This document shows, one piece after another, positions 4,756-22,683 of a stretch of 25,991 bases of DNA. The notes under the pieces were generated by a model. That model ran no database searches. It was given only the letters and a program-made list of their open reading frames with translations, and was not told where the DNA came from. The translations under genes were made by a program, and so were the position numbers. Every line of letters begins with the position of its first letter. Positions within the stretch are counted from its first letter, which is position 1. The DNA comes from a virus (Duplodnaviria; Heunggongvirae; Uroviricota; Caudoviricetes): IMG/VR virus record IMGVR_UViG_2913137851_000001, one strand, 5' to 3'.

Positions 4756-4808
4756 GGGCGGCAGAGCAGTCACGGAGTAAAACTGATACCGCCAAACGTC
4801 ACCAGAAA
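4756..4808 (-). ncRNA. dicF: DicF small regulatory RNA
   Basis: Reverse complement of 4756-4808 reads TTTCTGGTGACGTTTGGCGGTATCAGTTTTACTCCGTGACTGCTCTGCCGCCC, matching recalled 53-nt DicF. It ends in a GC-rich stem followed by TTTTT (the + strand AAAAA at 4751-4755). Sits between ydfC and dicB as in K-12. Confidence 0.85.
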
Positions 4809-5848: not shown

Positions 5849-6256
5849 TTATCTTTTATTTGTCCGCTGACGGGCTTTTAGTAATTCTTCAAAGAGTTTA
5901 TTGAAGTTTTTTACTCGAGCTCGCATTTCGGCGAGCTGGGTATCCTGTTCTGATTCTGGCAGTGCATTAAACAGCTCAAGGAGCTCTAGTTCTTTGGGGG
6001 ATAAGGCAACTGGCTTCTCAACAGGTGGTGTTGGTTGCTTGTCTTCATCGCCAAATAGAATCCATGTTGGTGAGCATTGCAATACTTTGCTGAGGGCAAA
6101 AAGGTTCTTCCCTGTAGGTTCACTATCACCCCGTTCCCATTGTGATACAGACACATGGGAGATTTTCAGGGCTTTAGCAAGAGACCTTTGGGTGTGTTTG
6201 AGGTTTTTCCGACGATACCTGATGCGTTCGCCGATAGTTAAATTTTTTGTTTCCAT
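5849..6256 (-). CDS. dicA: DicA, HTH (Xre/c2-like) repressor
   Basis: 135 aa (METKNLTIGERIRYRRKNLKHTQRSLAKALKISHVSVSQWERG...) with an HTH motif; matches recalled DicA. Divergent from dicC. Confidence 0.88.
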   Translation of the reverse strand: METKNLTIGERIRYRRKNLKHTQRSLAKALKISHVSVSQWERGDSEPTGKNLFALSKVLQCSPTWILFGDEDKQPTPPVEKPVALSPKELELLELFNALPESEQDTQLAEMRARVKNFNKLFEELLKARQRTNKR

Positions 6257-6307
6257 AGTTAGCTAATGCTAAATCGTATTGACTATGTTTTTGTTAACAT
6301 CTATCTT

Positions 6308-6323
6308 GTTAGTTATGACTAAC
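6308..6323. promoter_or_regulatory. Palindromic operator-like site in the dicA-dicC intergenic region
   Basis: GTTAGT-TATG-ACTAAC inverted repeat between the divergent dicA and dicC starts. A related site TTAGCCATGACTAA occurs at 5763-5776 upstream of ydfA. Confidence 0.5.
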
Positions 6324-6339
6324 AATAAAGGTGTTTTAA

Positions 6340-6570
6340 ATGCTTAAAACTGACGCTCTTTTGTATTTCGGTTCAAAAACAAAACTTGCACAAGCAGCAG
6401 GTATTCGTTTGGCTTCGCTTTATAGCTGGAAAGGGGATTTAGTTCCCGAAGGTCGCGCGATGCGTCTACAGGAGGCATCTGGCGGGGAGCTTCAGTATGA
6501 TCCCAAAGTTTATGATGAATATCGTAAGACGAAGCGGGCGGGGCGGTTGAACAATGAAAATCACTCCTGA
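6340..6570 (+). CDS. dicC: DicC, Cro-like regulator
   Basis: 76-aa ORF divergent from dicA (MLKTDALLYFGSKTKLAQAAGIRLASLYSWKGD...), consistent with recalled DicC. Confidence 0.8.
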   Translation: MLKTDALLYFGSKTKLAQAAGIRLASLYSWKGDLVPEGRAMRLQEASGGELQYDPKVYDEYRKTKRAGRLNNENHS

Positions 6571-7009
6571 ACAGGCTCGTGAGGCTCTGGATGCCTGGAT
6601 ATGTCGACCAGGAATGACACAGGAGCAGGCGACGATATTAATCACTGAAGCATTCTGGGCTTTGAAAGAGCGCCCGAACATCGATGTTCAGCGTGTCACA
6701 TATGAAGGTGGCGCGATTGATCAGCGAGCGCTTGGCGTTAATCGAGTGAAGATATTTGAACGCTGGAAGGCTATCGACACCAGGGATAAGCGTGAAAAGT
6801 TCACGGCGCTAGTGCCTGCAATTATGGAGGCTATCCGGATTAATGATTTCAGGTTGTATCGTGAAATTACTGACGGAAAAAGCATCACGTGCATGATCGC
6901 CGGGTTAAACAAAGAATATGGCGATGTGGTGGAGTCCGGACTGCTTTTTGCTGATCCTGCCGTAGTGGATCGTGAAACATTACTCATACCACGAAATAAA
7001 AGACGATGA
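6554..7009 (+). CDS. YdaT/YdfX-like (CII-like domain) protein
   Basis: 151-aa ORF overlapping the dicC 3' end by 17 nt. Occupies the position taken by ydaT after the cro-like gene in Rac-type immunity regions. Family assignment rests on weak recalled similarity. Confidence 0.5.
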   Translation: MKITPEQAREALDAWICRPGMTQEQATILITEAFWALKERPNIDVQRVTYEGGAIDQRALGVNRVKIFERWKAIDTRDKREKFTALVPAIMEAIRINDFRLYREITDGKSITCMIAGLNKEYGDVVESGLLFADPAVVDRETLLIPRNKRR

Positions 7010-7020
7010 GGAAGAACAAA

Positions 7021-7480
7021 GTGGCTGATTTTTGTTCAGCTAAATATAACATCAGTTTTGAAGAGCGGGATGAACTATTAATGGACTATGGTGAGTTACG
7101 CGGTGGAAGTGCTGCTGATGTCGAATCCTAGCGTGATGACTATGAAGCGGGAAAAACTCCGGTCGAAGCATATTGTGATGAGTGGGGCGATGAATGAGCG
7201 AGATTAATTATCAGGAAGGGCATGAAACGGCGGGGCAAGCAAAACCAGTGGCATGGCGATATCGCTACGTGAAAAAAGGCGTTACGGACTTTCAGGGGAA
7301 GTAGTGGTCTGGTGACTGGAAATATGTACCGAAAAAAGAGGATTGTAACGACAGGCCGAACTATCAAATTCAGGCCTTATTCACTGCCTCACCAGTCCCA
7401 GTTACATCAGAAGAACTGGTTAAAGCTGTGCACTTTTATGAACAACTAAAACGCGAAAATCCACCAACATCCGGCAACTA
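7021..7480 (+). pseudogene. Decayed early-region ORFs (in-frame amber stop and frameshift)
   Basis: Hand translation: GTG 7021 ... in-frame TAG at 7129-7131 ... TGA at 7195-7197 overlapping ATG 7194 (ATGA). A 36-codon ORF runs 7194-7304 (MSEINYQEGHETAGQAKPVAWRYRYVKKGVTDFQGK). Coding-like sequence continues in another frame to about 7480. Confidence 0.4.
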
Positions 7481-7735
7481 GATTAATGGATTAACTATGT
7501 CGGTTAAACGACCAGCCAACTGAAAAAGCGGAAACCTGATTACAGGTTGCCAGATAAGGCAATGAGCTACCTGGCGCGGAACGGACTGATAAGTATGGGG
7601 AATGTTTTACGATGAACCTTTAGACTAAAGAGTTTGTAACGCTATGTAAGTGATTTTTTCTGGTTTAGATATTTATATGTCCGGCCAAATTGAGGTGTGT
7701 TTAAATGTAATTGCACATTGATTGTAGGAGGAATA

Positions 7736-7915
7736 ATGAAAAACGCATTGCAGTTTTTGTTTGTTGCGTTCTGGTTGTTCGCATCATGTATGCCCATCAT
7801 CTTCACAGCAAGGTATATGGAAAAAGTTGATGTTTTGATATTAATATTTGGATATATAAATGCCCTTTTTTTAGGGGTGTTCATGGCGGTCATGTGCATT
7901 GAATACTGGCGGTAA
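7736..7915 (+). CDS. Small (59-aa) predicted two-helix membrane protein
   Basis: AGGAGG at 7726-7731 precedes ATG 7736. Product MKNALQFLFVAFWLFASCMPIIFTARYMEKVDVLILIFGYINALFLGVFMAVMCIEYWR has two hydrophobic stretches. Sits in an AT-rich island (about 7600-7920). Confidence 0.4.
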   Translation: MKNALQFLFVAFWLFASCMPIIFTARYMEKVDVLILIFGYINALFLGVFMAVMCIEYWR

Positions 7916-8042
7916 ATACAGCGAACTCCATTGGTTTAGTTGGATATTTACTGTGCTGGACAAAAACGGTTTGCGGGGAAATCTTAGTTAAGTAGAATGA
8001 CTGCGGGTGCTTGAGGCTATCTGCCTCGGGCATGGACACCAA

Positions 8043-8046
8043 CGGC
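8043..8046. repeat. Target-site duplication (CGGC), left copy
   Basis: CGGC immediately flanks the IS terminus TGACCTGCC at 8047 and is repeated at 9268-9271. Confidence 0.7.
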
Positions 8047-8075
8047 TGACCTGCCCCCACGATTAGATACAACAC

Positions 8076-8909
8076 TCAGTTAGTAACGTCGGAATCTTCA
8101 TTCTCAGAATGACCCTTTCTCCAGCCCGCTGCAAATTCAGACGGTGTCTGATAATTCAGCGTGGAGTGCGGGCGGCATTCGTTATAATCCTGCCGCCAGT
8201 CATTAATAATTTTCCTGGCATGAACGATATCGCTGAACCAGTGCTCATTCAAACATTCATCGCGAAATCGTCCGTTAAAGCTCTCAATAAATCCGTTCTG
8301 CGTTGGCTTGCCCGGCTGGATTAAGCGCAACTCAACACCATGCTCAAAGGCCCATTGATCCAGTGCACGGCAAGTGAACTCCGGCCCCTGGTCAGTTCTT
8401 ATCGTCGCCGGATAGCCTCGAAACAGTGCAATGCTGTCCAGAATACGCGTGACCTGAACGCCTGAAATCCCAAAGGCAACAGTGACCGTCAGGCATTCCT
8501 TTGTGAAATCATCGACGCAGGTAAGACACTTGATCCTGCGACCGGTGGAAAGTGCGTCCATGACGAAATCCATCGACCAGGTCAGATTGGGCGCCGCCGG
8601 ACGGAGCAGCGGCAGACGTTCTGTTGCCAGCCCTTTACGACGTCTTCTGCGTTTTACGCCCAGGCCACTGAGGTGATAAAGCCGGTACACGCGCTTATGA
8701 TTAACATGAAGCCCTTCACGGCGCAGCAACTGCCAAATACGACGGTAGCCAAAACGCCTGCGCTCCAGTGCCAGCTCAGTGATGCGCCCTGATAAATGCG
8801 CATCAGCAGCCGGACGGTGAGCCTCATAGCGGCAGGTCGACAGGGATAAACCTGTAAGCCTGCAGGCACGACGTTGCGACAGACCGGTCGCATCACACAT
8901 CAACATCAC
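8076..8909 (-). CDS. IS3-family transposase OrfB (DDE integrase core)
   Basis: 277-aa ORF with a DDE/rve-like region (D ... D ... E with K/R, e.g. [19 protein letters not shown]). In the -1 frame relative to orfA. Confidence 0.8.
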
Positions 8910-8932
8910 GGCTTCCCGCTTCTGGTCTGTCG

Positions 8933-9196
8933 TCAGTACTTTCGCCCAAGAGCCACCTGAAGCGCCTCTTTATCCAGCATGGCTTCGGCAAGCAGCTTCT
9001 TGAGTCTGGTGTTCTCTTCCTCAAGCGACTTCAGGCGCTTAACTTCAGGCACCTCCATACCGCCATACTTCTTACGCCAGGTGTAAAACGTGGCATCGGA
9101 AATGGCATGCTTGCGGCAGAGTTCACGGGCGGGTACCCCAGCTTCGGCTTCGCGGAGAATACTGATGATCTGTTCGTCGGAAAAACGCTTCTTCAT
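8933..9196 (-). CDS. IS3-family transposase OrfA (HTH)
   Basis: 87 aa, [46 protein letters not shown]..., the typical IS3/IS407-type OrfA with HTH and leucine zipper. Confidence 0.8.
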
Positions 9197-16107: not shown

Positions 16108-16407
16108 AAAAATTCCTTAATACTGATAACTTGGCGCACTATACACACGTTCCTGAAGAAAGCTATAGTTTTTTGATGGGGTTGAAGATGGCTGGATGTC
16201 TAAAATAAACATTGCTTCATATGTTCAACTATGCGTTAATGATTGCGTCGGTTTGAAGAACAGACGATATACGAAGTAGTTTACTAAAGCAGTTCTCATT
16301 TCAGGTGTTATTCACTTATTCCTTCTTTGAGTCTCTCCAATTAAGTACGAAGTCGTTTCTGTTATGCAAACCATTTATGCCGAAAGGCTCAAGTTAAGGA
16401 ATGTAGA

Positions 16408-16623
16408 ATGTCAAATAAAATGACTGGTTTAGTAAAATGGTTTAACGCTGATAAAGGTTTCGGCTTTATTTCTCCTGTTGATGGTAGTAAAGATGTGTTT
16501 GTGCATTTTTCTGCGATTCAGAATGATAATTATCGAACCTTATTTGAAGGTCAAAAGGTTACCTTCTCTATAGAGAGTGGTGCTAAAGGTCCTGCAGCAG
16601 CAAATGTCATCATTACTGATTAA
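16408..16623 (+). CDS. cspB: Cold-shock protein CspB
   Basis: 71-aa product [71 protein letters not shown], the CspA family with RNP1/RNP2 motifs. Confidence 0.9.
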
Positions 16624-16903
16624 AATTCATCGCTCGTCTGTATACGATAACGAAGAAGGCTGATGCCTGAGTAGAGATACGGACAGAGTAGTGAATATTG
16701 GATCTCTTTAATAAAAAGTAAGGAGGTCCAATACATGAAACAATGGCTAGCATATTTGGCAAAATCTTAATCAGGAAAAGTATGCTAACCATTGTGGTGA
16801 AGTGCAGGTTTGCTGCATGAATAGTTTTACAGCAGAAGCTAACTGCTGGCATGGCAAAACAAAGTGCGTAAGTGGATGACTCCCACAAAAAGCACCACAA
16901 TCT

Positions 16904-18932: not shown

Positions 18933-19182
18933 GGTAATATTAAATCGGAACATTTACATCGCGGAATGTAAAATTTAAATAAAAAGGACTCTTCCATGAG
19001 CCAAAATTCCTGAAATCTTAAGGGTAAGATAAAAGGTCTTAATCAGAATGACACGTTTTATTAATAAATAAAGCTATTCTTTCATTGCTGTGTTTTTCTT
19101 TACAAAAGTAATCCTTGCTATGGGTGGTTAATCATGCGTTAATGGTGTTCTGGTTTGTTACAAATTTATCTGAAGCAGTCAT

Positions 19183-19191
19183 TGTTATAAT
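19183..19191 (+). promoter_or_regulatory. Extended -10 promoter element upstream of cspI
   Basis: TGtTATAAT about 100 nt upstream of the cspI ATG. The -35 is weak. Transcription start was not determined. Confidence 0.4.
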
Positions 19192-19294
19192 TTTATTATT
19201 TGTACCTCTTGAGATTTCCTTGTTGGTTTTTCTCTCTGATATTTTTTTTCGGACCATTCTGCCCAAGGGCTAATTTCTTCAAAAGGTAATAATT

Positions 19295-19507
19295 ATGTCT
19301 AACAAAATGACTGGTTTAGTGAAATGGTTTAACCCTGAAAAAGGTTTTGGTTTCATCACGCCGAAAGATGGCAGCAAAGATGTGTTTGTCCATTTCTCAG
19401 CAATTCAGAGCAACGATTTCAAAACATTAACTGAGAATCAGGAAGTTGAATTTGGTATTGAGAACGGACCTAAAGGTCCTGCCGCTGTTCATGTAGTGGC
19501 GCTTTGA
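19295..19507 (+). CDS. cspI: Cold-shock protein CspI
   Basis: 70-aa product [82 protein letters not shown] as in cspA-type leaders. Confidence 0.9.
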
Positions 19508-19710
19508 GGTAGACAATATTACAAACCATATTCACTTTAGATGCCCGTGTTGTCATGGTTCCCAGTATAGAACATCATCTTTTGATGTTTCTGACATGAA
19601 TCCTTTCGGGGCAAAATGTATCTTTTGTAAATCAATGATGATTACATTTGATAATATTTCACAATACTTAAATGCCAGCCGTCTGTCGTTGGATTTAAAA
19701 AAGTGAAAAT

Positions 19711-19778: not shown

Positions 19779-20009
19779 ATGAAAAAAATCATAGTTTTTT
19801 TTAACTCTGAACCAGCAGTGGTAGTGCCAGCGATGACTGGAGTTAACACCATCATGCGTGAATATCCAAATGGCGAAAAAACACACCTTACTGTAATGGC
19901 CGCAGGGTTTCCATCTCTGACCGGAGATCATAAAGTCATTTATGTAGCCGCGGATCGACATGTTACTTCAGAAGAAATTCTGGAAGCAGCAATAAGGCTC
20001 TTGAGTTGA
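19779..20009 (+). CDS. Hypothetical protein (76 aa)
   Basis: Internal ATG of the 90-aa ORF in the track: MKKIIVFFNSEPAVVVPAMTGVNTIMREYPNGEK... Balanced composition; no recognisable motif. Confidence 0.4.
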   Translation: MKKIIVFFNSEPAVVVPAMTGVNTIMREYPNGEKTHLTVMAAGFPSLTGDHKVIYVAADRHVTSEEILEAAIRLLS

Positions 20010-20177
20010 TTTGATGCTATTGCATTGATAATTCAGGAAAATTCTCTTTGTCTGTTTGTGTAAAATTTAGACTATCGTATGTTGATTATTGCGATGTTTC
20101 ATCTTATCTTTTACACGTTTGCACCATATAATCGACTTACTGTGTAACTGGAAAGTCATAACAGACTAAAAGAGGAA

Positions 20178-20354
20178 ATGATGAATATTGAAAACTTAAA
20201 AACAAAAGCAGAAGCAGATATTTCTGAATATATAACAAAAAAAATTATTGAACTTAAGAAAAAGACCGGGAAAGAAGTTACCAGTATTCAGTTTACCGCA
20301 CGGGAAAAAATGACGGGTCTTGAAAGCTATGATGTCAAGATTAATTTAATCTGA
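20178..20354 (+). CDS. gnsB: GnsA/GnsB-family small protein
   Basis: 58-codon ORF, below the ORF-track cut-off: MMNIENLKTKAEADISEYITKKIIELKKKTGKEVTSIQFTAREKMTGLESYDVKINLI, resembling recalled GnsA/GnsB. AGAGGAA SD. Confidence 0.75.
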   Translation: MMNIENLKTKAEADISEYITKKIIELKKKTGKEVTSIQFTAREKMTGLESYDVKINLI

Positions 20355-20382
20355 TGTATTCAATAATAAAATTTATCCATAA

Positions 20383-20404
20383 ACCTCGTTTTTACGGGGT
20401 TTTG
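20383..20404 (+). terminator. Possible terminator between convergent gnsB and ydfO
   Basis: Imperfect hairpin ACCTCGT...ACGGGGT followed by TTTTG. Confidence 0.35.
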
Positions 20405-20505
20405 TTATATTTGAATGGTTCCGAATATCTAAATCACAATTGTTGATGGTTTTTATTAAACCAATGCAGTCCGGCTCAGGAGTGAGAGAAGCCGGACGTT
20501 ATGGT

Positions 20506-20916
20506 TTAGCGTGGTAAGATCTGTGTAGTTTTCTGGATGCTTTCAGTAAATAGTAATGAATTATCAAAGGTATAGTAATATCTTTTTTGTTCGTGGATAT
20601 TTGTAACCCACCGAAAAACTCCTGCTTTAGCAAGGTTTCTTCTGTATTCCTGAAATGTGATCTCTCTGGATTTCAGCTTATTAGAGGTCGTTTCTATAAG
20701 ATGCCTATCCTTTGAAAATTTGACAGACACAATGTTTTTTAGGCCCTTTAATAACACTGTATTATCATTTTTTAATACAATATGAACATTCTCTGTGGCT
20801 AAATAGTAAATGTAATGTGAGACATTGTGACGTTTTAGCTCAGAATAAAACCATTGATAGTTTAAATCGTTTCGAACTTTATCAAATATTTGTTTAAAAA
20901 TGACTACCTGATCCAT
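20506..20916 (-). CDS. ydfO: YdfO (DUF1398-family) protein
   Basis: 136 aa from the ATG at 20916 (GGAAGG SD), matching the recalled K-12 length. Function unknown. Confidence 0.7.
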
Positions 20917-20973
20917 AGATAAACCTTCCATGTGATATGAGGGGGCGTAGTCTGCACGATTATCTAAATTGCT

Positions 20974-21147
20974 TCAATCTGGTCTGACCTGTTTTCTGAG
21001 CAATTCAGTAATGTCACTCTTTTCTTTGTTTGCTTCAGAAGAAACTCTTTTTTCTGAGCACAGTCTCCGGCGGCAGGCTTCAATGACCCAGGCTGAGAAA
21101 TTCCCGGACCCTTTTTGCTCAAGAGCGATGTTAATTTGTTCAATCAT
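20974..21147 (-). CDS. Possible small ribbon-helix-helix-like protein (57 aa)
   Basis: [33 protein letters not shown]... fits a beta-strand plus two-helix RHH pattern. No convincing SD. Lies antisense to the out-of-frame 5' part of the tail-fibre ORF. Confidence 0.3.
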
Positions 21148-22108
21148 TTGGTTAACCGCGCTGACAGACAATACGCAGGGGGCAGCAGGTCTTGAGTTAT
21201 ACGAGGTGTATAACAACGGATATCCAACAGCGTATGGAAATATCATTCACCTGAAAGGGATGACAGCCGTTGGCGAAGGTGAGTTACTCATCGGCTGGAG
21301 TGGTACAAGCGGTGCTCATGCTCCGGCATTTATTCGTTCACGACGGGATACGACCGACGCAAACTGGTCGCCGTGGGCGCAGCTTTACACCTCGGCTCAT
21401 CCTCCTGCAGAGTTTTATCCAGTCGGTGCACCAATCCCGTGGCCATCAGATACCGTTCCGTCTGGTTATGCCCTGATGCAGGGGCAGACTTTTGACAAAT
21501 CTGCATACCCGAAACTTGCAGTTGCTTATCCGTCAGGCGTGATCCCTGATATGCGTGGCTGGACGATTAAGGGCAAGCCCGCCAGTGGTCGGGCCGTATT
21601 ATCTCAGGAACAGGACGGCATTAAATCGCACACCCACAGCGCCAGCGCATCCAGTACGGATTTGGGGACGAAAACCACATCGTCGTTTGATTACGGAACC
21701 AAATCCACGAATAACACCGGGGCGCATACCCATAGTATTAGCGGGACCGCAAATAGTGCCGGTGCGCACCAACACAAGAGTTCCGGTGCATTTGGTGGCA
21801 CGAACACGAGCATTTTCCCTAATGGTTATACCGCGATTTCAAATCTAAGCGCGGGGATTATGAGCACAACAAGCGGTAGTGGCCAGACTCGTAATGCAGG
21901 GAAGACATCATCAGATGGTGCTCATACCCACTCGCTGTCCGGCACTGCTGCAAGCGCAGGCGCACATGCACATACTGTCGGTATTGGTGCTCATACGCAC
22001 TCCGTTGCGATTGGTTCACATGGACACACCATCACCGTTAACGCTGCTGGTAACGCGGAAAACACCGTCAAAAACATCGCATTTAACTATATTGTGAGGC
22101 TTGCATAA
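21128..22108 (+). pseudogene. stfQ: Side tail-fibre gene fragment (C-terminal domain only; 5'-truncated)
   Basis: C-terminal roughly 300 aa are tail-fibre-like, with Gly/Ser/Thr/His-rich repeats ([49 protein letters not shown]). The N-terminal about 60 aa of the ORF are low-complexity read-through. No upstream tail-fibre N-terminal domain exists. Followed directly by tfa. Confidence 0.7.
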
Positions 22109-22683
22109 TGGCATTCAGAATGAGTGAACAACCACGGACCATAAAAATTTATAATCTGCTGGCCGGAACTAATGAATTTATTGGTGAAGGTGATGCATAT
22201 ATTCCGCCTCATACAGGTCTGCCAGCAAACAGTACCGATATTGCACCGCCAGATATTCCGGCTGGCTTCGTGGCTGTTTTCAACAGTGATGAGTCATCGT
22301 GGCATCTCGTTGAAGATCATCGGGGTAAAACGGTTTATGACGTGGCTTCCGGCGACGCGTTATTTATTTCTGAACTCGGTCCGTTACCGGAAAATGTTAC
22401 CTGGTTATCGCCGGAAGGGGAGTTTCAGAAGTGGAACGGCACAGCCTGGGTGAAGGATACGGAAGCAGAAAAACTGTTCCGGATCCGGGAGGCGGAAGAA
22501 ACAAAAAACAACCTGATGCAGGTAGCCAGTGAGCATATTGCGCCGCTTCAGGATGCTGCAGATCTGGAAATTGCAACGGAGGAAGAAATCTCGTTGCTGG
22601 AAGCATGGAAAAAGTATCGGGTATTGCTGAACCGTGTTGATACGTCAACTGCACAGGATATTGAATGGCCAGCACTGCCGTAG
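22108..22683 (+). CDS. tfaQ: Tail-fibre assembly chaperone
   Basis: 191-aa ORF starting at the stop of the tail-fibre gene (ATAATGG overlap); typical Tfa N-terminus ([17 protein letters not shown]...). Confidence 0.8.

Follow-up and report, generated by a model that had tools for sequence, protein, structure and literature searches.

The ynfO remnant and the ydfO gene analysed here are both annotated accessory genes of the Qin prophage, and their standing side by side is very probably owed to the lambdoid gene layout and not to a partnership as toxin and antitoxin. The window, a stretch of 25,991 nucleotides from an IMG/VR virus record (IMGVR_UViG_2913137851_000001), was 100% identical to E. 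coli C strains, where the RefSeq names for the two genes are "YlcI/YnfO family protein" and ydfO (E. coli C WG5). An initial annotation had pointed to a 57-codon open reading frame (ORF) with a ribbon-helix-helix (RHH)-like pattern upstream of ydfO on the same strand, and had likened the two to antitoxin-toxin or regulator-effector modules, while warning that the small ORF may be spurious.

The ynfO remnant and ydfO in the window

The 57-codon ORF was found as described (20977..21147, minus strand, ATG at 21147-21145, stop at 20976-20974), with 57 nt between it and the ydfO ATG at 20916, in keeping with the 58 nt first noted. It is the 3′ part of ynfO, a gene of the YlcI/YnfO family (DUF3950) that is already annotated, and not a new gene. 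Its 57 codons are codons 21-77 of the 77-codon ynfO, and its start is the internal Met21 of YnfO. Identity with K-12 ynfO covers codons 19-77 (N-Q-M-I-E-Q...R-P-D) plus the stop, so that the ynfO 3′ remnant occupies 20974..21154 on the minus strand. The 57-aa product matched Pfam DUF3950 (PF13132) over its residues 1-30, with E=1.4e-21 and 76.5 bits (cut-off 25). With the NCBIfam model NF041551, YlcI_YnfO_N, the ORF of the window reached 21.1 bits, below the cut-off of 30, and covered model positions 13-37 only, whereas full-length K-12 YnfO (77 aa) scored 36.6 bits, above that cut-off. Only part of a family member is left in the window: the copy encodes everything from helix A through the turn and helix B to the variable tail, and the N-terminal basic arm and K/R-N-I-R-F-P segment of the family are missing, with unrelated sequence in their place.

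Comparison with K-12 by blastn located the loss. Window positions 20301-21154 corresponded to 5902-6755 of the K-12 record L002 (100%), and positions 21153-22200 to 7724-8771 (99.8%), ynfO being annotated at 6575-6808 and nohA at 7197-7766 of that record. The junction (21154..21155) carries 2 bp of microhomology, and 968 bp are lost there relative to the K-12 Qin prophage; the ynfO homology to K-12 extends to 21154 and ends at this point. Only 7 records, all of the E. coli C lineage, matched the junction in one piece. Gone with the 968 bp are codons 1-18 of ynfO (MSTKNRTRRTTTRNIRFP), the ynfO upstream region, a cos site of the lambda type and, except for its very end, nohA, a Nu1 homologue. 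Coordinate transfer (window 21153 is L002 7724, and nohA ends at L002 7766) leaves the last ~40 nt of nohA at 21155..21195, plus strand. Compared to YnfO (Qin) and YlcI (DLP12) of K-12, the window copy thus shares DNA-identical codons 19-77, the place upstream of ydfO and the conserved helix B, but not the first 18 codons, the start codon, the upstream region or the adjoining cos/nohA.

With the 968 bp, the ynfO copy of E. coli C lost its start codon and upstream region as well as the codons for the basic arm and the ribbon, and cos and nohA went too; the copy is therefore most likely a non-functional pseudogene fragment, which RefSeq still annotates as a 65-aa "YlcI/YnfO family protein". A product of 57, 65 or 90 aa may nevertheless arise from the remnant. 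The remark that the small ORF has no convincing Shine-Dalgarno (SD) sequence held for the ATG at 21147 (TTAACCAAATG), and the same was true of the ATG at 21246 and of the TTG at 21171 that PGAP uses as the start. An antisense open frame does overlap the ORF (20969-22108, plus strand), as had been noticed, but its 5′ end is not a decayed tail fibre: it runs across ynfO, the ~40 nt of nohA 3′ end and the stf pseudogene, whose start is placed by PGAP at 21407.

The ydfO coding sequence (20506..20916, minus strand), a DUF1398 gene of the Qin cryptic prophage annotated by RefSeq in both E. coli C WG5 and K-12, is intact and 100% identical to that of K-12. It specifies 136 aa from the RefSeq/PGAP start; the 141-aa form on which PDB 2HH8 is based would begin at another ATG of the frame, at 20931. 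An SD-like GGAAGG, read from the sequence at 20924..20929 on the minus strand, stands 7 nt before the ATG at 20916; no comparable motif precedes the ATG at 20931, and the position of this putative SD supports the 136-aa start. YdfO matched all 119 of the 119 positions of the Pfam model PF07166 (DUF1398; E=1.7e-46, 157.5 bits, cut-off 22), and its match to 2HH8 (E=2e-90), an entry named "hypothetical protein ydfO", spanned residues 1-141, that entry being the solved structure of YdfO itself. An AlphaFold2 model from a 19-sequence alignment reached a pLDDT of only 46. Among the other DUF1398 proteins, lambda p78 and YbcV of DLP12 are 75-80% identical to YdfO, and YcgX 44%; unlike ydfO, ycgX lies outside a phage context and adjoins bluR. 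The family carries putative labels only, "head protein" (PHROG 413) and "envelope protein". An Rfam scan of 20000-21600 gave no RNA family.

The gene probably has its own promoter, within the ~100 nt upstream that are common to the DUF1398 genes of lambda and DLP12. Since consensus scans of both strains showed no sigma-70 site ahead of ynfO or of ydfO, this placement is drawn from synteny alone. Being intact, with its own SD and a probable promoter of its own, ydfO would therefore be independent of ynfO.

The conserved core of the YlcI/YnfO family

The RHH-like pattern noticed in the small ORF was partly borne out. The family core is in register with the Arc repressor of phage P22, but the segment MIEQINIAL corresponds to helix A and not to a ribbon strand; the ribbon (RNIRFP) is encoded in the deleted part of ynfO, and the structural assignment of the initial annotation was off by one element. 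A conserved 50-residue core of YnfO could be aligned to Arc gap-free, and its elements fell in register with those of the repressor (ribbon, helix A, G-x-x-x-x-S turn, helix B). From N- to C-terminus, this core would consist of a basic arm, the ribbon K/R-N-I-R-F-P, helix A (xxLIExIxxxL), a Gly-containing turn and helix B, and a full-length YnfO-type protein would bind DNA via a two-stranded ribbon. Like Arc (1PAR), full-length YnfO has the N-x-R-aromatic-P motif, the hydrophobic pattern of helix A, the turn Gly and a Ser opening helix B. In the Arc-operator structure Asn11 and Arg13 are base-contacting residues, and the gapless alignment pairs them with N14 and R16 of YnfO. Invariant in the family alignment are I15, R16, I25, F37, V41 and C45, and near-invariant are F17, N36, S38, W40 and A44.

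The AlphaFold2 monomer of full-length YnfO (pLDDT 65.7) was extended over residues 14-18 and helical over 19-32, interrupted at G33 and helical again from residue 34 on; no strand was formed. When this model was compared to the PDB with Foldseek, the best match was the Arc-operator complex 1PAR (37 columns, 2.5 A, E=2.7), and most other top matches were RHH proteins as well (ParD2, ArtA, NikR, PrpA), all with E-values of 2.7 or worse. Arc was also the best partner of the family in hhalign (P=0.005, probability only 7%), with both the ribbon and helix A in register. CopG followed in register with P=0.096, and the lambda Cro control gave P=0.3 over 1 column. HMMER searches against PDB sequences, by single sequence or by profile, found no match, a Pfam scan of 22 family members at E<=10 returned no RHH model, and a BFVD fold search gave nothing significant. 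Searches with single sequences and with a profile built on the 52-residue domain alignment listed only close E. coli relatives, many of them error-laden lambda control-DNA contigs, and so reached no named RHH Pfam family.

From sequence and model taken together, the 50-residue core of YlcI/YnfO most likely folds as an Arc-like RHH dimer; the evidence is in register, yet weak and statistically not secure. The resemblance to Arc, and more loosely to Mnt, CopG, MetJ and ParD, is not significant database-wide, and the window copy lacks the ribbon. In the literature, we found no DNA-binding data for YlcI/YnfO and no functional study of YlcI, YnfO or DUF3950.

Gene neighbourhoods of DUF3950 and DUF1398

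In lambda and DLP12, the DUF3950 and DUF1398 genes are separated by ybcW, on the opposite strand. The adjacency seen in Qin would be a derived state of this lambda layout (ylcI, then ybcW on the other strand, then the DUF1398 gene), with ynfO and ydfO as accessory, or "moron", genes that lie antisense to late transcription, flanked by the lysis cassette and what used to be the cos/terminase region. Gene order, compared in Qin, lambda, PhiR42_1 and ev099, agreed with such a placement: the genes lie between the lysis genes and cos and antisense to the late genes. GC content is 32-35% in the ydfO region against 51-55% in the stf remnant, and lambda p78 is non-essential, its knock-down being without effect (PMC10695390). 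These are features shared with the lambdoid morons bor and lom, namely the lysis-cos interval, the strand opposite to late transcription, AT-richness and dispensability for lytic growth; unlike for bor and lom, an own promoter and terminator of ynfO/ydfO are putative only. The adjacency would then reflect a common position in a variable moron region and not an obligate functional pair.

Co-occurrence was consistent with the layout reading, and failed in both directions for an obligate pair. By tblastn, YnfO was present in 155 phage records and YdfO in 43, and at least 112 of the 155 carried DUF3950 without DUF1398. DUF1398 was present at 15 of 73 DUF3950 loci of a second IMG/VR sample and missing at the other 58, and 0 of 43 divergent Enterobacterales DUF3950 loci of at least 5 kb had it within 6 kb. 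DUF3950 genes mostly stand without DUF1398, as in Stx phages, satellites and SPI-5; in Stx2a_WGPS8 the gene is divergent from HNH/TerS, and DUF1398 is absent. Conversely, ycgX is a DUF1398 gene without DUF3950, beside bluR, in nearly all E. coli. DNA similar to ydfO was found in 5375 of 5426 genomes, because the ycgX paralogue stands in where a full-length ydfO/ybcV match is missing. Lastly, the 7 E. coli C-lineage genomes, and thus the window itself, combine an intact ydfO with a 5′-truncated ynfO, a situation that the initial annotation had named as refuting its two-gene unit.

The constant phage neighbour of DUF3950 is instead the terminase small-subunit (TerS)/cos region. In two samples of viral loci, the DUF3950 gene was divergent from the TerS gene at a distance of ~195-390 bp (69 of 72 loci and ~77 of 80). 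In phage lambda, the DUF3950 ORF lies ~200 bp from the right cohesive end, and the lambda reference annotation has no CDS for it. The family is narrow (Enterobacterales). It is also encoded by satellites with integrase, AlpA and primase, in some cases joined to the N-terminal ~53 residues (Pfam Terminase_2 region) of a TerS with 62-66% identity to that of a Stx phage. These positions and fusions suggest that DUF3950 might act at the packaging end, by binding near cos or controlling the terminase operon, and in satellites help to redirect or block helper packaging, ydfO being irrelevant to it. We consider this unlikely: position by itself does not demonstrate function, DUF3950 is also found in SPI-5 and at chromosomal loci with no terminase nearby, and the literature search on the family found nothing. 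Moreover, cosmids are packaged from small fragments that carry cos, and the DUF3950 gene would accordingly not be needed in cis.

Over the DUF3950 frame of the satellites, long minus-strand ORFs (254-511 aa) were considered as real genes and set aside, having no Pfam match and varying lengths. Their conserved part consists of an icd-like gene, a spacer and DUF3950 antisense, with coinciding wobble positions, and they are probably mostly shadow ORFs. A "transcriptional repressor" annotated antisense to a DUF3950-like match in a Pasteurella satellite was set aside likewise, as a probable shadow ORF.

A regulatory link limited to Qin was also weighed. The ynfO-ydfO adjacency is kept in 78 of 80 Qin-type IMG/VR loci, where 42 nt separate ynfO from the upstream ydfO ATG and the two genes share one reading frame, and for this reason ydfO may be co-transcribed with, and regulated by, YnfO in intact prophages. 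A near-palindrome, GGTCTGACC (GGTCAGACC on the minus strand), lies at 20981..20989 within the last ynfO codons, ~65 nt upstream of ydfO. A homologous palindrome precedes the DUF1398 gene of phage lambda, the Qin/lambda homology resuming at GGTCAGACCAGATTGAA. In addition, ydfO is strongly condition-dependent, responding to ionic liquid (PMC4077768) and to DicC induction (PMC11430063). Intact YnfO might then repress or activate the ydfO promoter, for instance at GGTCAGACC, and ydfO would be deregulated in E. coli C. Several observations make such a regulator-effector unit improbable. The palindrome is present even where ylcI is ~0.8 kb off with ybcW in between, a DUF1398 target is missing from the neighbourhood of most DUF3950 genes, and the palindrome was recovered by genomic SELEX as a PdhR site for ynfO>ydfO, not as a YnfO site, with a related site in the ybcV/ybcW spacer (PMC7660256).

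The type II toxin-antitoxin reading, in which YnfO would be an RHH antitoxin and autorepressor and YdfO the toxin that it neutralises, fared worse and is now very improbable. As in ParD-ParE or CcdA-type systems, a small RHH-like gene directly precedes a larger one encoded by the same strand, the spacer is short and conserved in Qin-type loci, and RHH domains are common in antitoxins, ParD2 and PrpA being among the weak Foldseek matches. However, such systems have strict co-occurrence, a known toxin fold or family and overlapping or abutting genes, whereas here co-occurrence fails both ways, the spacer is 42-57 nt, and the genes are not contiguous in lambda and DLP12. No toxin or defence family was found for YdfO (Pfam gave only DUF1398, and PHROG 413 "head protein"), and PADLOC defence/TA models matched neither YnfO nor YdfO. 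The natural loss of the "antitoxin" beside an intact "toxin" in E. coli C would amount to a natural experiment, albeit an indirect one, against a toxin that needs its antitoxin. Published data point the same way: besides the p78 knock-down, overexpressed YdfO was reported to be protective and not toxic, raising resistance to oxidative stress (PMC4077768), and in TraDIS data insertions are missing from ydfO and not from ynfO, the opposite of what is expected of a toxin gene (PMC5821084). We regard the toxin-antitoxin reading as largely refuted. A 233-aa YnfO-YdfO fusion (cluster P0122, TGA -> TGG) was rejected as a "Rosetta stone", being found on only 6 short contigs, and the large size of that cluster is not evidence of coupling, as it is made of ordinary DUF1398 members.

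That the 57-codon ORF is a spurious frame of no biological meaning, as its absent SD and promoter-like site, the lost native start of ynfO and the long antisense frame (whose third codon positions coincide with its own, a frame where shadow ORFs persist) might suggest, has a negligible probability and is already refuted, because the DUF3950 match, the identity with the 3′ 59 codons of annotated K-12 ynfO and a frame and motif kept in family members down to ~40% identity mark it as a gene remnant and not a chance ORF. The earlier suspicion stands only in its weaker form, that this strain has no functional gene there, which is part of the preferred explanation: a beheaded ynfO beside ydfO in the moron region.

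Consequences for annotation and for the DUF3950 family

Both genes are already annotated, and ynfO and ydfO together make up no new defence or toxin-antitoxin system; the 65-aa "YlcI/YnfO family protein" CDS in the E. coli C RefSeq records is better called a pseudogene fragment produced by the 968-bp deletion. It is reasonable to call DUF3950 a probable Arc-like RHH domain, and this offers a way to test what an uncharacterised family does. Its constant partner is terminase/cos and not DUF1398, and this is the only thread here worth an experiment; it includes the unannotated ORF of the lambda reference genome and the TerS-fusion variants of satellites. There is a small chance that an Arc-like DNA-binding protein has gone unrecognised in DUF3950, one that serves as a mark of the packaging end in lambdoid phages, whose gene is divergent from that of TerS in most lambdoid and Stx phages, and which was recruited by P4/PICI-like satellites. 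If so, it would act on cos-proximal DNA or on the expression or specificity of terminase, and the DUF3950-TerS fusions of satellites would be tools to hijack or block helper packaging.

The small ORF upstream of ydfO in E. coli C

When complete E. coli genomes were searched by megablast with 20400-21300, matches at 100% identity covered its full length, and an unbroken match came from only 7 records, each belonging to the E. coli C lineage (WG5 and derivatives, C122, NCTC122 and PA11). In these records, ydfO (DUF1398) and a "YlcI/YnfO family protein" are annotated. The region is flanked on one side by cspB, essD, rrrQ, rzpQ, cspI, ynfN and gnsB, and on the other by a stf pseudogene, tfaQ, pinQ and ydfK, a gene set identifying it as the Qin cryptic prophage. 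Elsewhere in the window, Rfam matched DicF (4756-4807), an IS1222-type frameshift element of an IS3-family insertion (8849-8966), thermoregulator leaders of the cspA type upstream of cspB and cspI (16247-16639 and 19149-19534) and an IS009 RNA inside tfaQ (22451-22649).

The ORF listing confirmed the 57-codon ORF described in the initial annotation, on the minus strand from ATG 21147 to TGA 20976-20974, upstream of ydfO and on the same strand. The 136 aa ydfO (minus strand, 3′ end at 20506) has its RefSeq start at 20916, and the proposed spacing of 58 nt is right when measured to this start. GGAAGG lies 7 nt upstream of the 20916 ATG; inspection of the sequence revealed no comparable Shine-Dalgarno (SD) motif before the in-frame ATG at 20931, the start of the 141-residue NMR construct 2HH8. 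Convergent with ydfO is gnsB (20178-20354, plus strand), labelled "GnsA/GnsB family addiction module toxin" in RefSeq; the toxin-like neighbour, if any, is gnsB rather than ydfO.

The K-12 ynfO product has 77 residues and begins MSTKNRTRRTTTRNIRFPNQMIEQ. Starting downstream of ydfO, the window and K-12 sequences are identical up to position 21154, at ynfO codons N19-Q20-M21; beyond this point the window resumes at K-12 sequence 968 bp further on. With the deleted segment (6756-7723 of the K-12 Qin locus, L002), codons 1-18 of ynfO and its upstream region were lost, together with all of nohA (a Nu1 homologue) except about 40 nt, and a lambda-type cos sequence, recognised by eye. ATG 21147 therefore corresponds to the internal Met21 of YnfO. 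Two longer minus-strand starts, TTG 21171 (65 aa, the start chosen by PGAP) and ATG 21246 (90 aa), both draw their extra residues from unrelated DNA. As had been noted for the small ORF, a convincing SD is missing: none usable was found at any of the three candidate starts (21147, 21171, 21246). The remnant matches Pfam DUF3950 strongly (E=1.4e-21) because this 30-position model starts exactly at Met21; with an NCBIfam model including the N-terminus, it scores 21.1 bits for a cut-off of 30, compared to 36.6 for K-12 YnfO. Judged from its sequence, the small ORF of E. coli C is a gene fragment. The corresponding protein entry WP_236941922.1 (20974-21171; 65 aa, starting at TTG) is both truncated and chimeric; PGAP annotates it as intact in E. 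coli C, and it would probably be better flagged as a pseudogene. Both ynfO and ydfO, as well as their two families, are already in databases.

Association of ynfO with ydfO

Among close YnfO relatives (80 IMG/VR loci, 96-99% identity), ydfO adjoins in 78 of 80, with 42 nt between the ynfO stop and the upstream ydfO ATG, and a divergent nohA/Nu1 lies 387-539 bp upstream of ynfO in 77 of 80. ynfO is in frame with ydfO in its 141-codon form, at a distance of 15 codons including the stop (20931-20976 in the window); an in-frame YnfO-YdfO fusion (protein P0122, TGA to TGG, 233 aa) is rare, being present on six short contigs only.

The co-occurrence analysis proposed in the initial annotation showed that adjacency is constant only among these close relatives. 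In a second IMG/VR sample, for which another tail variant served as seed, DUF1398 was found in 15 of the 73 loci with enough downstream sequence, and a divergent terminase small subunit (TerS) gene in 69 of 72 (62 Nu1-type, 7 HNH plus Terminase_2). No DUF1398 gene was present within 6 kb in any of 43 divergent loci of at least 5 kb (one genome per species, 38-60% identity; Salmonella, Tatumella, Brenneria, Pantoea, Serratia, Xenorhabdus, Proteus, Klebsiella and others). By tblastn, phage records with YnfO relatives numbered 155, and those with YdfO relatives only 43; every one of the 68 records from Stx-converting phages had a YnfO relative and no YdfO relative. Complete E. coli genomes contained ydfO-like DNA in 5375 of 5426 cases and the ynfO domain in 4183. 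In genomes lacking a full-length ydfO/ybcV match, the paralogue is ycgX (44% identical to YdfO), which adjoins bluR (PMC3509220) and has no DUF3950 relative nearby. On these genomic comparisons, the link to ydfO dissolves outside close YnfO relatives.

In lambda, DLP12 and Tritos, ylcI (minus) is followed by ybcW/p79 (plus) and then by DUF1398 (minus). Qin and lambda DNA are almost identical through ynfO codon ~50, the tail differs, and homology resumes at GGTCAGACCAGATTGAA, which precedes the DUF1398 gene. The tight Qin arrangement is therefore derived, with the ybcW segment replaced.

The proposal of a toxin-antitoxin (TA) or regulator-effector module is not supported by these data: in E. 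coli C, an intact ydfO, 100% identical to that of K-12, stands beside a beheaded ynfO, a situation that the initial annotation itself had named as refuting the proposal, and both the phage records and the divergent loci argue against it. PADLOC models matched neither of the two proteins. The lambda DUF1398 protein p78 is dispensable (PMC10695390), overexpression of YdfO was reported to be protective (PMC4077768), and TraDIS insertions were absent from ydfO, not from ynfO (PMC5821084). We conclude that ynfO-ydfO is not a TA system, nor an obligate unit. A local regulatory link between the two genes within intact Qin-type prophages is possible but unlikely. Upstream of ydfO, the palindrome GGTCTGACC (window 20981-20989) coincides with a reported PdhR genomic-SELEX site, and DLP12 has a related site upstream of ybcV (PMC7660256).

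The DUF3950 family and its probable ribbon-helix-helix fold

DUF3950 is a small family: in a set of 1.84 billion proteins it has 114 representatives at the 50% identity level. Its named genuine members are from Enterobacterales, and no functional study was found in the literature. Residues 1-50 are strongly conserved (invariant or nearly so are I15, R16, F17, I25, N36, F37, S38, W40, V41, A44 and C45), and the C-terminal tail is variable. The core of YnfO (11-49) aligns without gaps to P22 Arc 8-46 (PQFNLRWPREVLDLVRKVAEENGRSVNSEIYQRVMESFK), sharing with it the ribbon Asn and Arg, the aromatic-Pro ending the ribbon, the turn Gly and the helix B-capping Ser. In the Arc-operator structure, bases are read by Gln9, Asn11 and Arg13.

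In the AF2 monomer of YnfO (pLDDT 65.7), residues 14-18 are extended and residues 19-32 helical, with a break at G33 before another helix that begins at 34. Searched against the PDB with Foldseek, this model matched the Arc-operator complex 1PAR best (37 columns, 2.5 Å); ParD2, ArtA, NikR and PrpA, all ribbon-helix-helix (RHH) proteins, were also among the top matches, and every E-value was at least 2.7. With hhalign, the domain profile aligned in register with Arc (P=0.005) and CopG (P=0.096); the lambda Cro control gave P=0.3 over one column. HMMER against PDB sequences returned no RHH match, and no RHH model was matched in a Pfam scan of 22 family members at E<=10. These tools agree in direction, not in strength, and the predictions make an RHH fold likely for the family. 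The RHH-like pattern perceived in the small ORF is probably right for the family, but the stretch taken for its strand, MIEQINIAL, is helix A. Because the ribbon sits in the deleted part, the remnant product would lack the DNA-reading element, as well as part of the dimer core.

Genomic neighbours of DUF3950 genes

In phages, the constant neighbour of DUF3950, from the gene orders compared, is the cos/terminase end. Stx2a_WGPS8, for instance, has its DUF3950 gene divergent from HNH-TerS-TerL (TerL, large subunit), followed by opposite-strand genes. Lambda encodes a 64-codon YlcI homologue on the minus strand (J02459 48109-48303; locus L003 3610-3804; also L177), about 200 bp from the right cohesive end and 98% identical over residues 1-54; neither J02459 nor NC_001416 has a CDS annotated there. 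Between cosQ/cosN and the ynfO/ylcI start, K-12 Qin carries a perfect palindrome, GATAATGATTATC (L002 6958-6970), also present in lambda near 48,452-48,466 and deleted in the window. It resembles a Fur box, and could be an operator for the divergent region.

Lambda right-end DNA was also encountered on ~3.5-kb or ~48-kb contigs in dozens of unrelated bacterial "genomes" (Kitasatospora, Cohnella, Algoriphagus, Pedobacter, Polaromonas and others; loci L101-L131, L144, L150, and many ~3.5-kb ENA contigs behind proteins P0014-P0120). This is most likely control or spike-in DNA, such as the ~3.6-kb nanopore control amplicon, and it adds frameshifted YlcI and p78 variants to protein databases.

DUF3950 proteins are encoded by integrase-AlpA-primase satellites (L091 4714-5103; L092 5590-5772 and 6001-6363; also L093-L095). 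In such satellites the gene is oriented against the rest of the element and is flanked by an AntA-type antirepressor gene and an icd-like/primase operon, a layout consistent with cf-PICI gene lists (PMC13612085). Some of these proteins carry, as a fusion, the N-terminal ~53 residues of a Terminase_2-type TerS, 62-66% identical to a Stx-phage TerS. The L092 satellite adjoins a prophage with its own DUF3950-HNH-TerS region. Satellites contain long open frames, 254-511 codons in length, that cross the DUF3950 gene in antisense (L154 5598-6887, L175 5613-7148 and L086 2583-3257, all minus; further cases in L146, L151-L153, L166 and L173). They have no Pfam match, one is labelled "transcriptional repressor" in the Pasteurella element Pmp7, and the shadow of a 60-76-codon gene explains their length only in part.

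SPI-5 of Salmonella enterica subsp. diarizonae and arizonae contains a DUF3950 gene (L135 5995-6171; L136) between sopB/pipC and pipD. The gene is oriented divergently from sopB (IpgD family) and the chaperone of sopB, and precedes pipD (Peptidase_C69); its position appears to be that of an uncharacterised SPI-5 small ORF. Tatumella has members at conserved chromosomal positions. A role tied to packaging, to which the terminase neighbourhood might point, is possible but unlikely. The layout, in which a small gene faces away from a large operon in mobile elements of several types, is consistent with a DNA-binding regulator.
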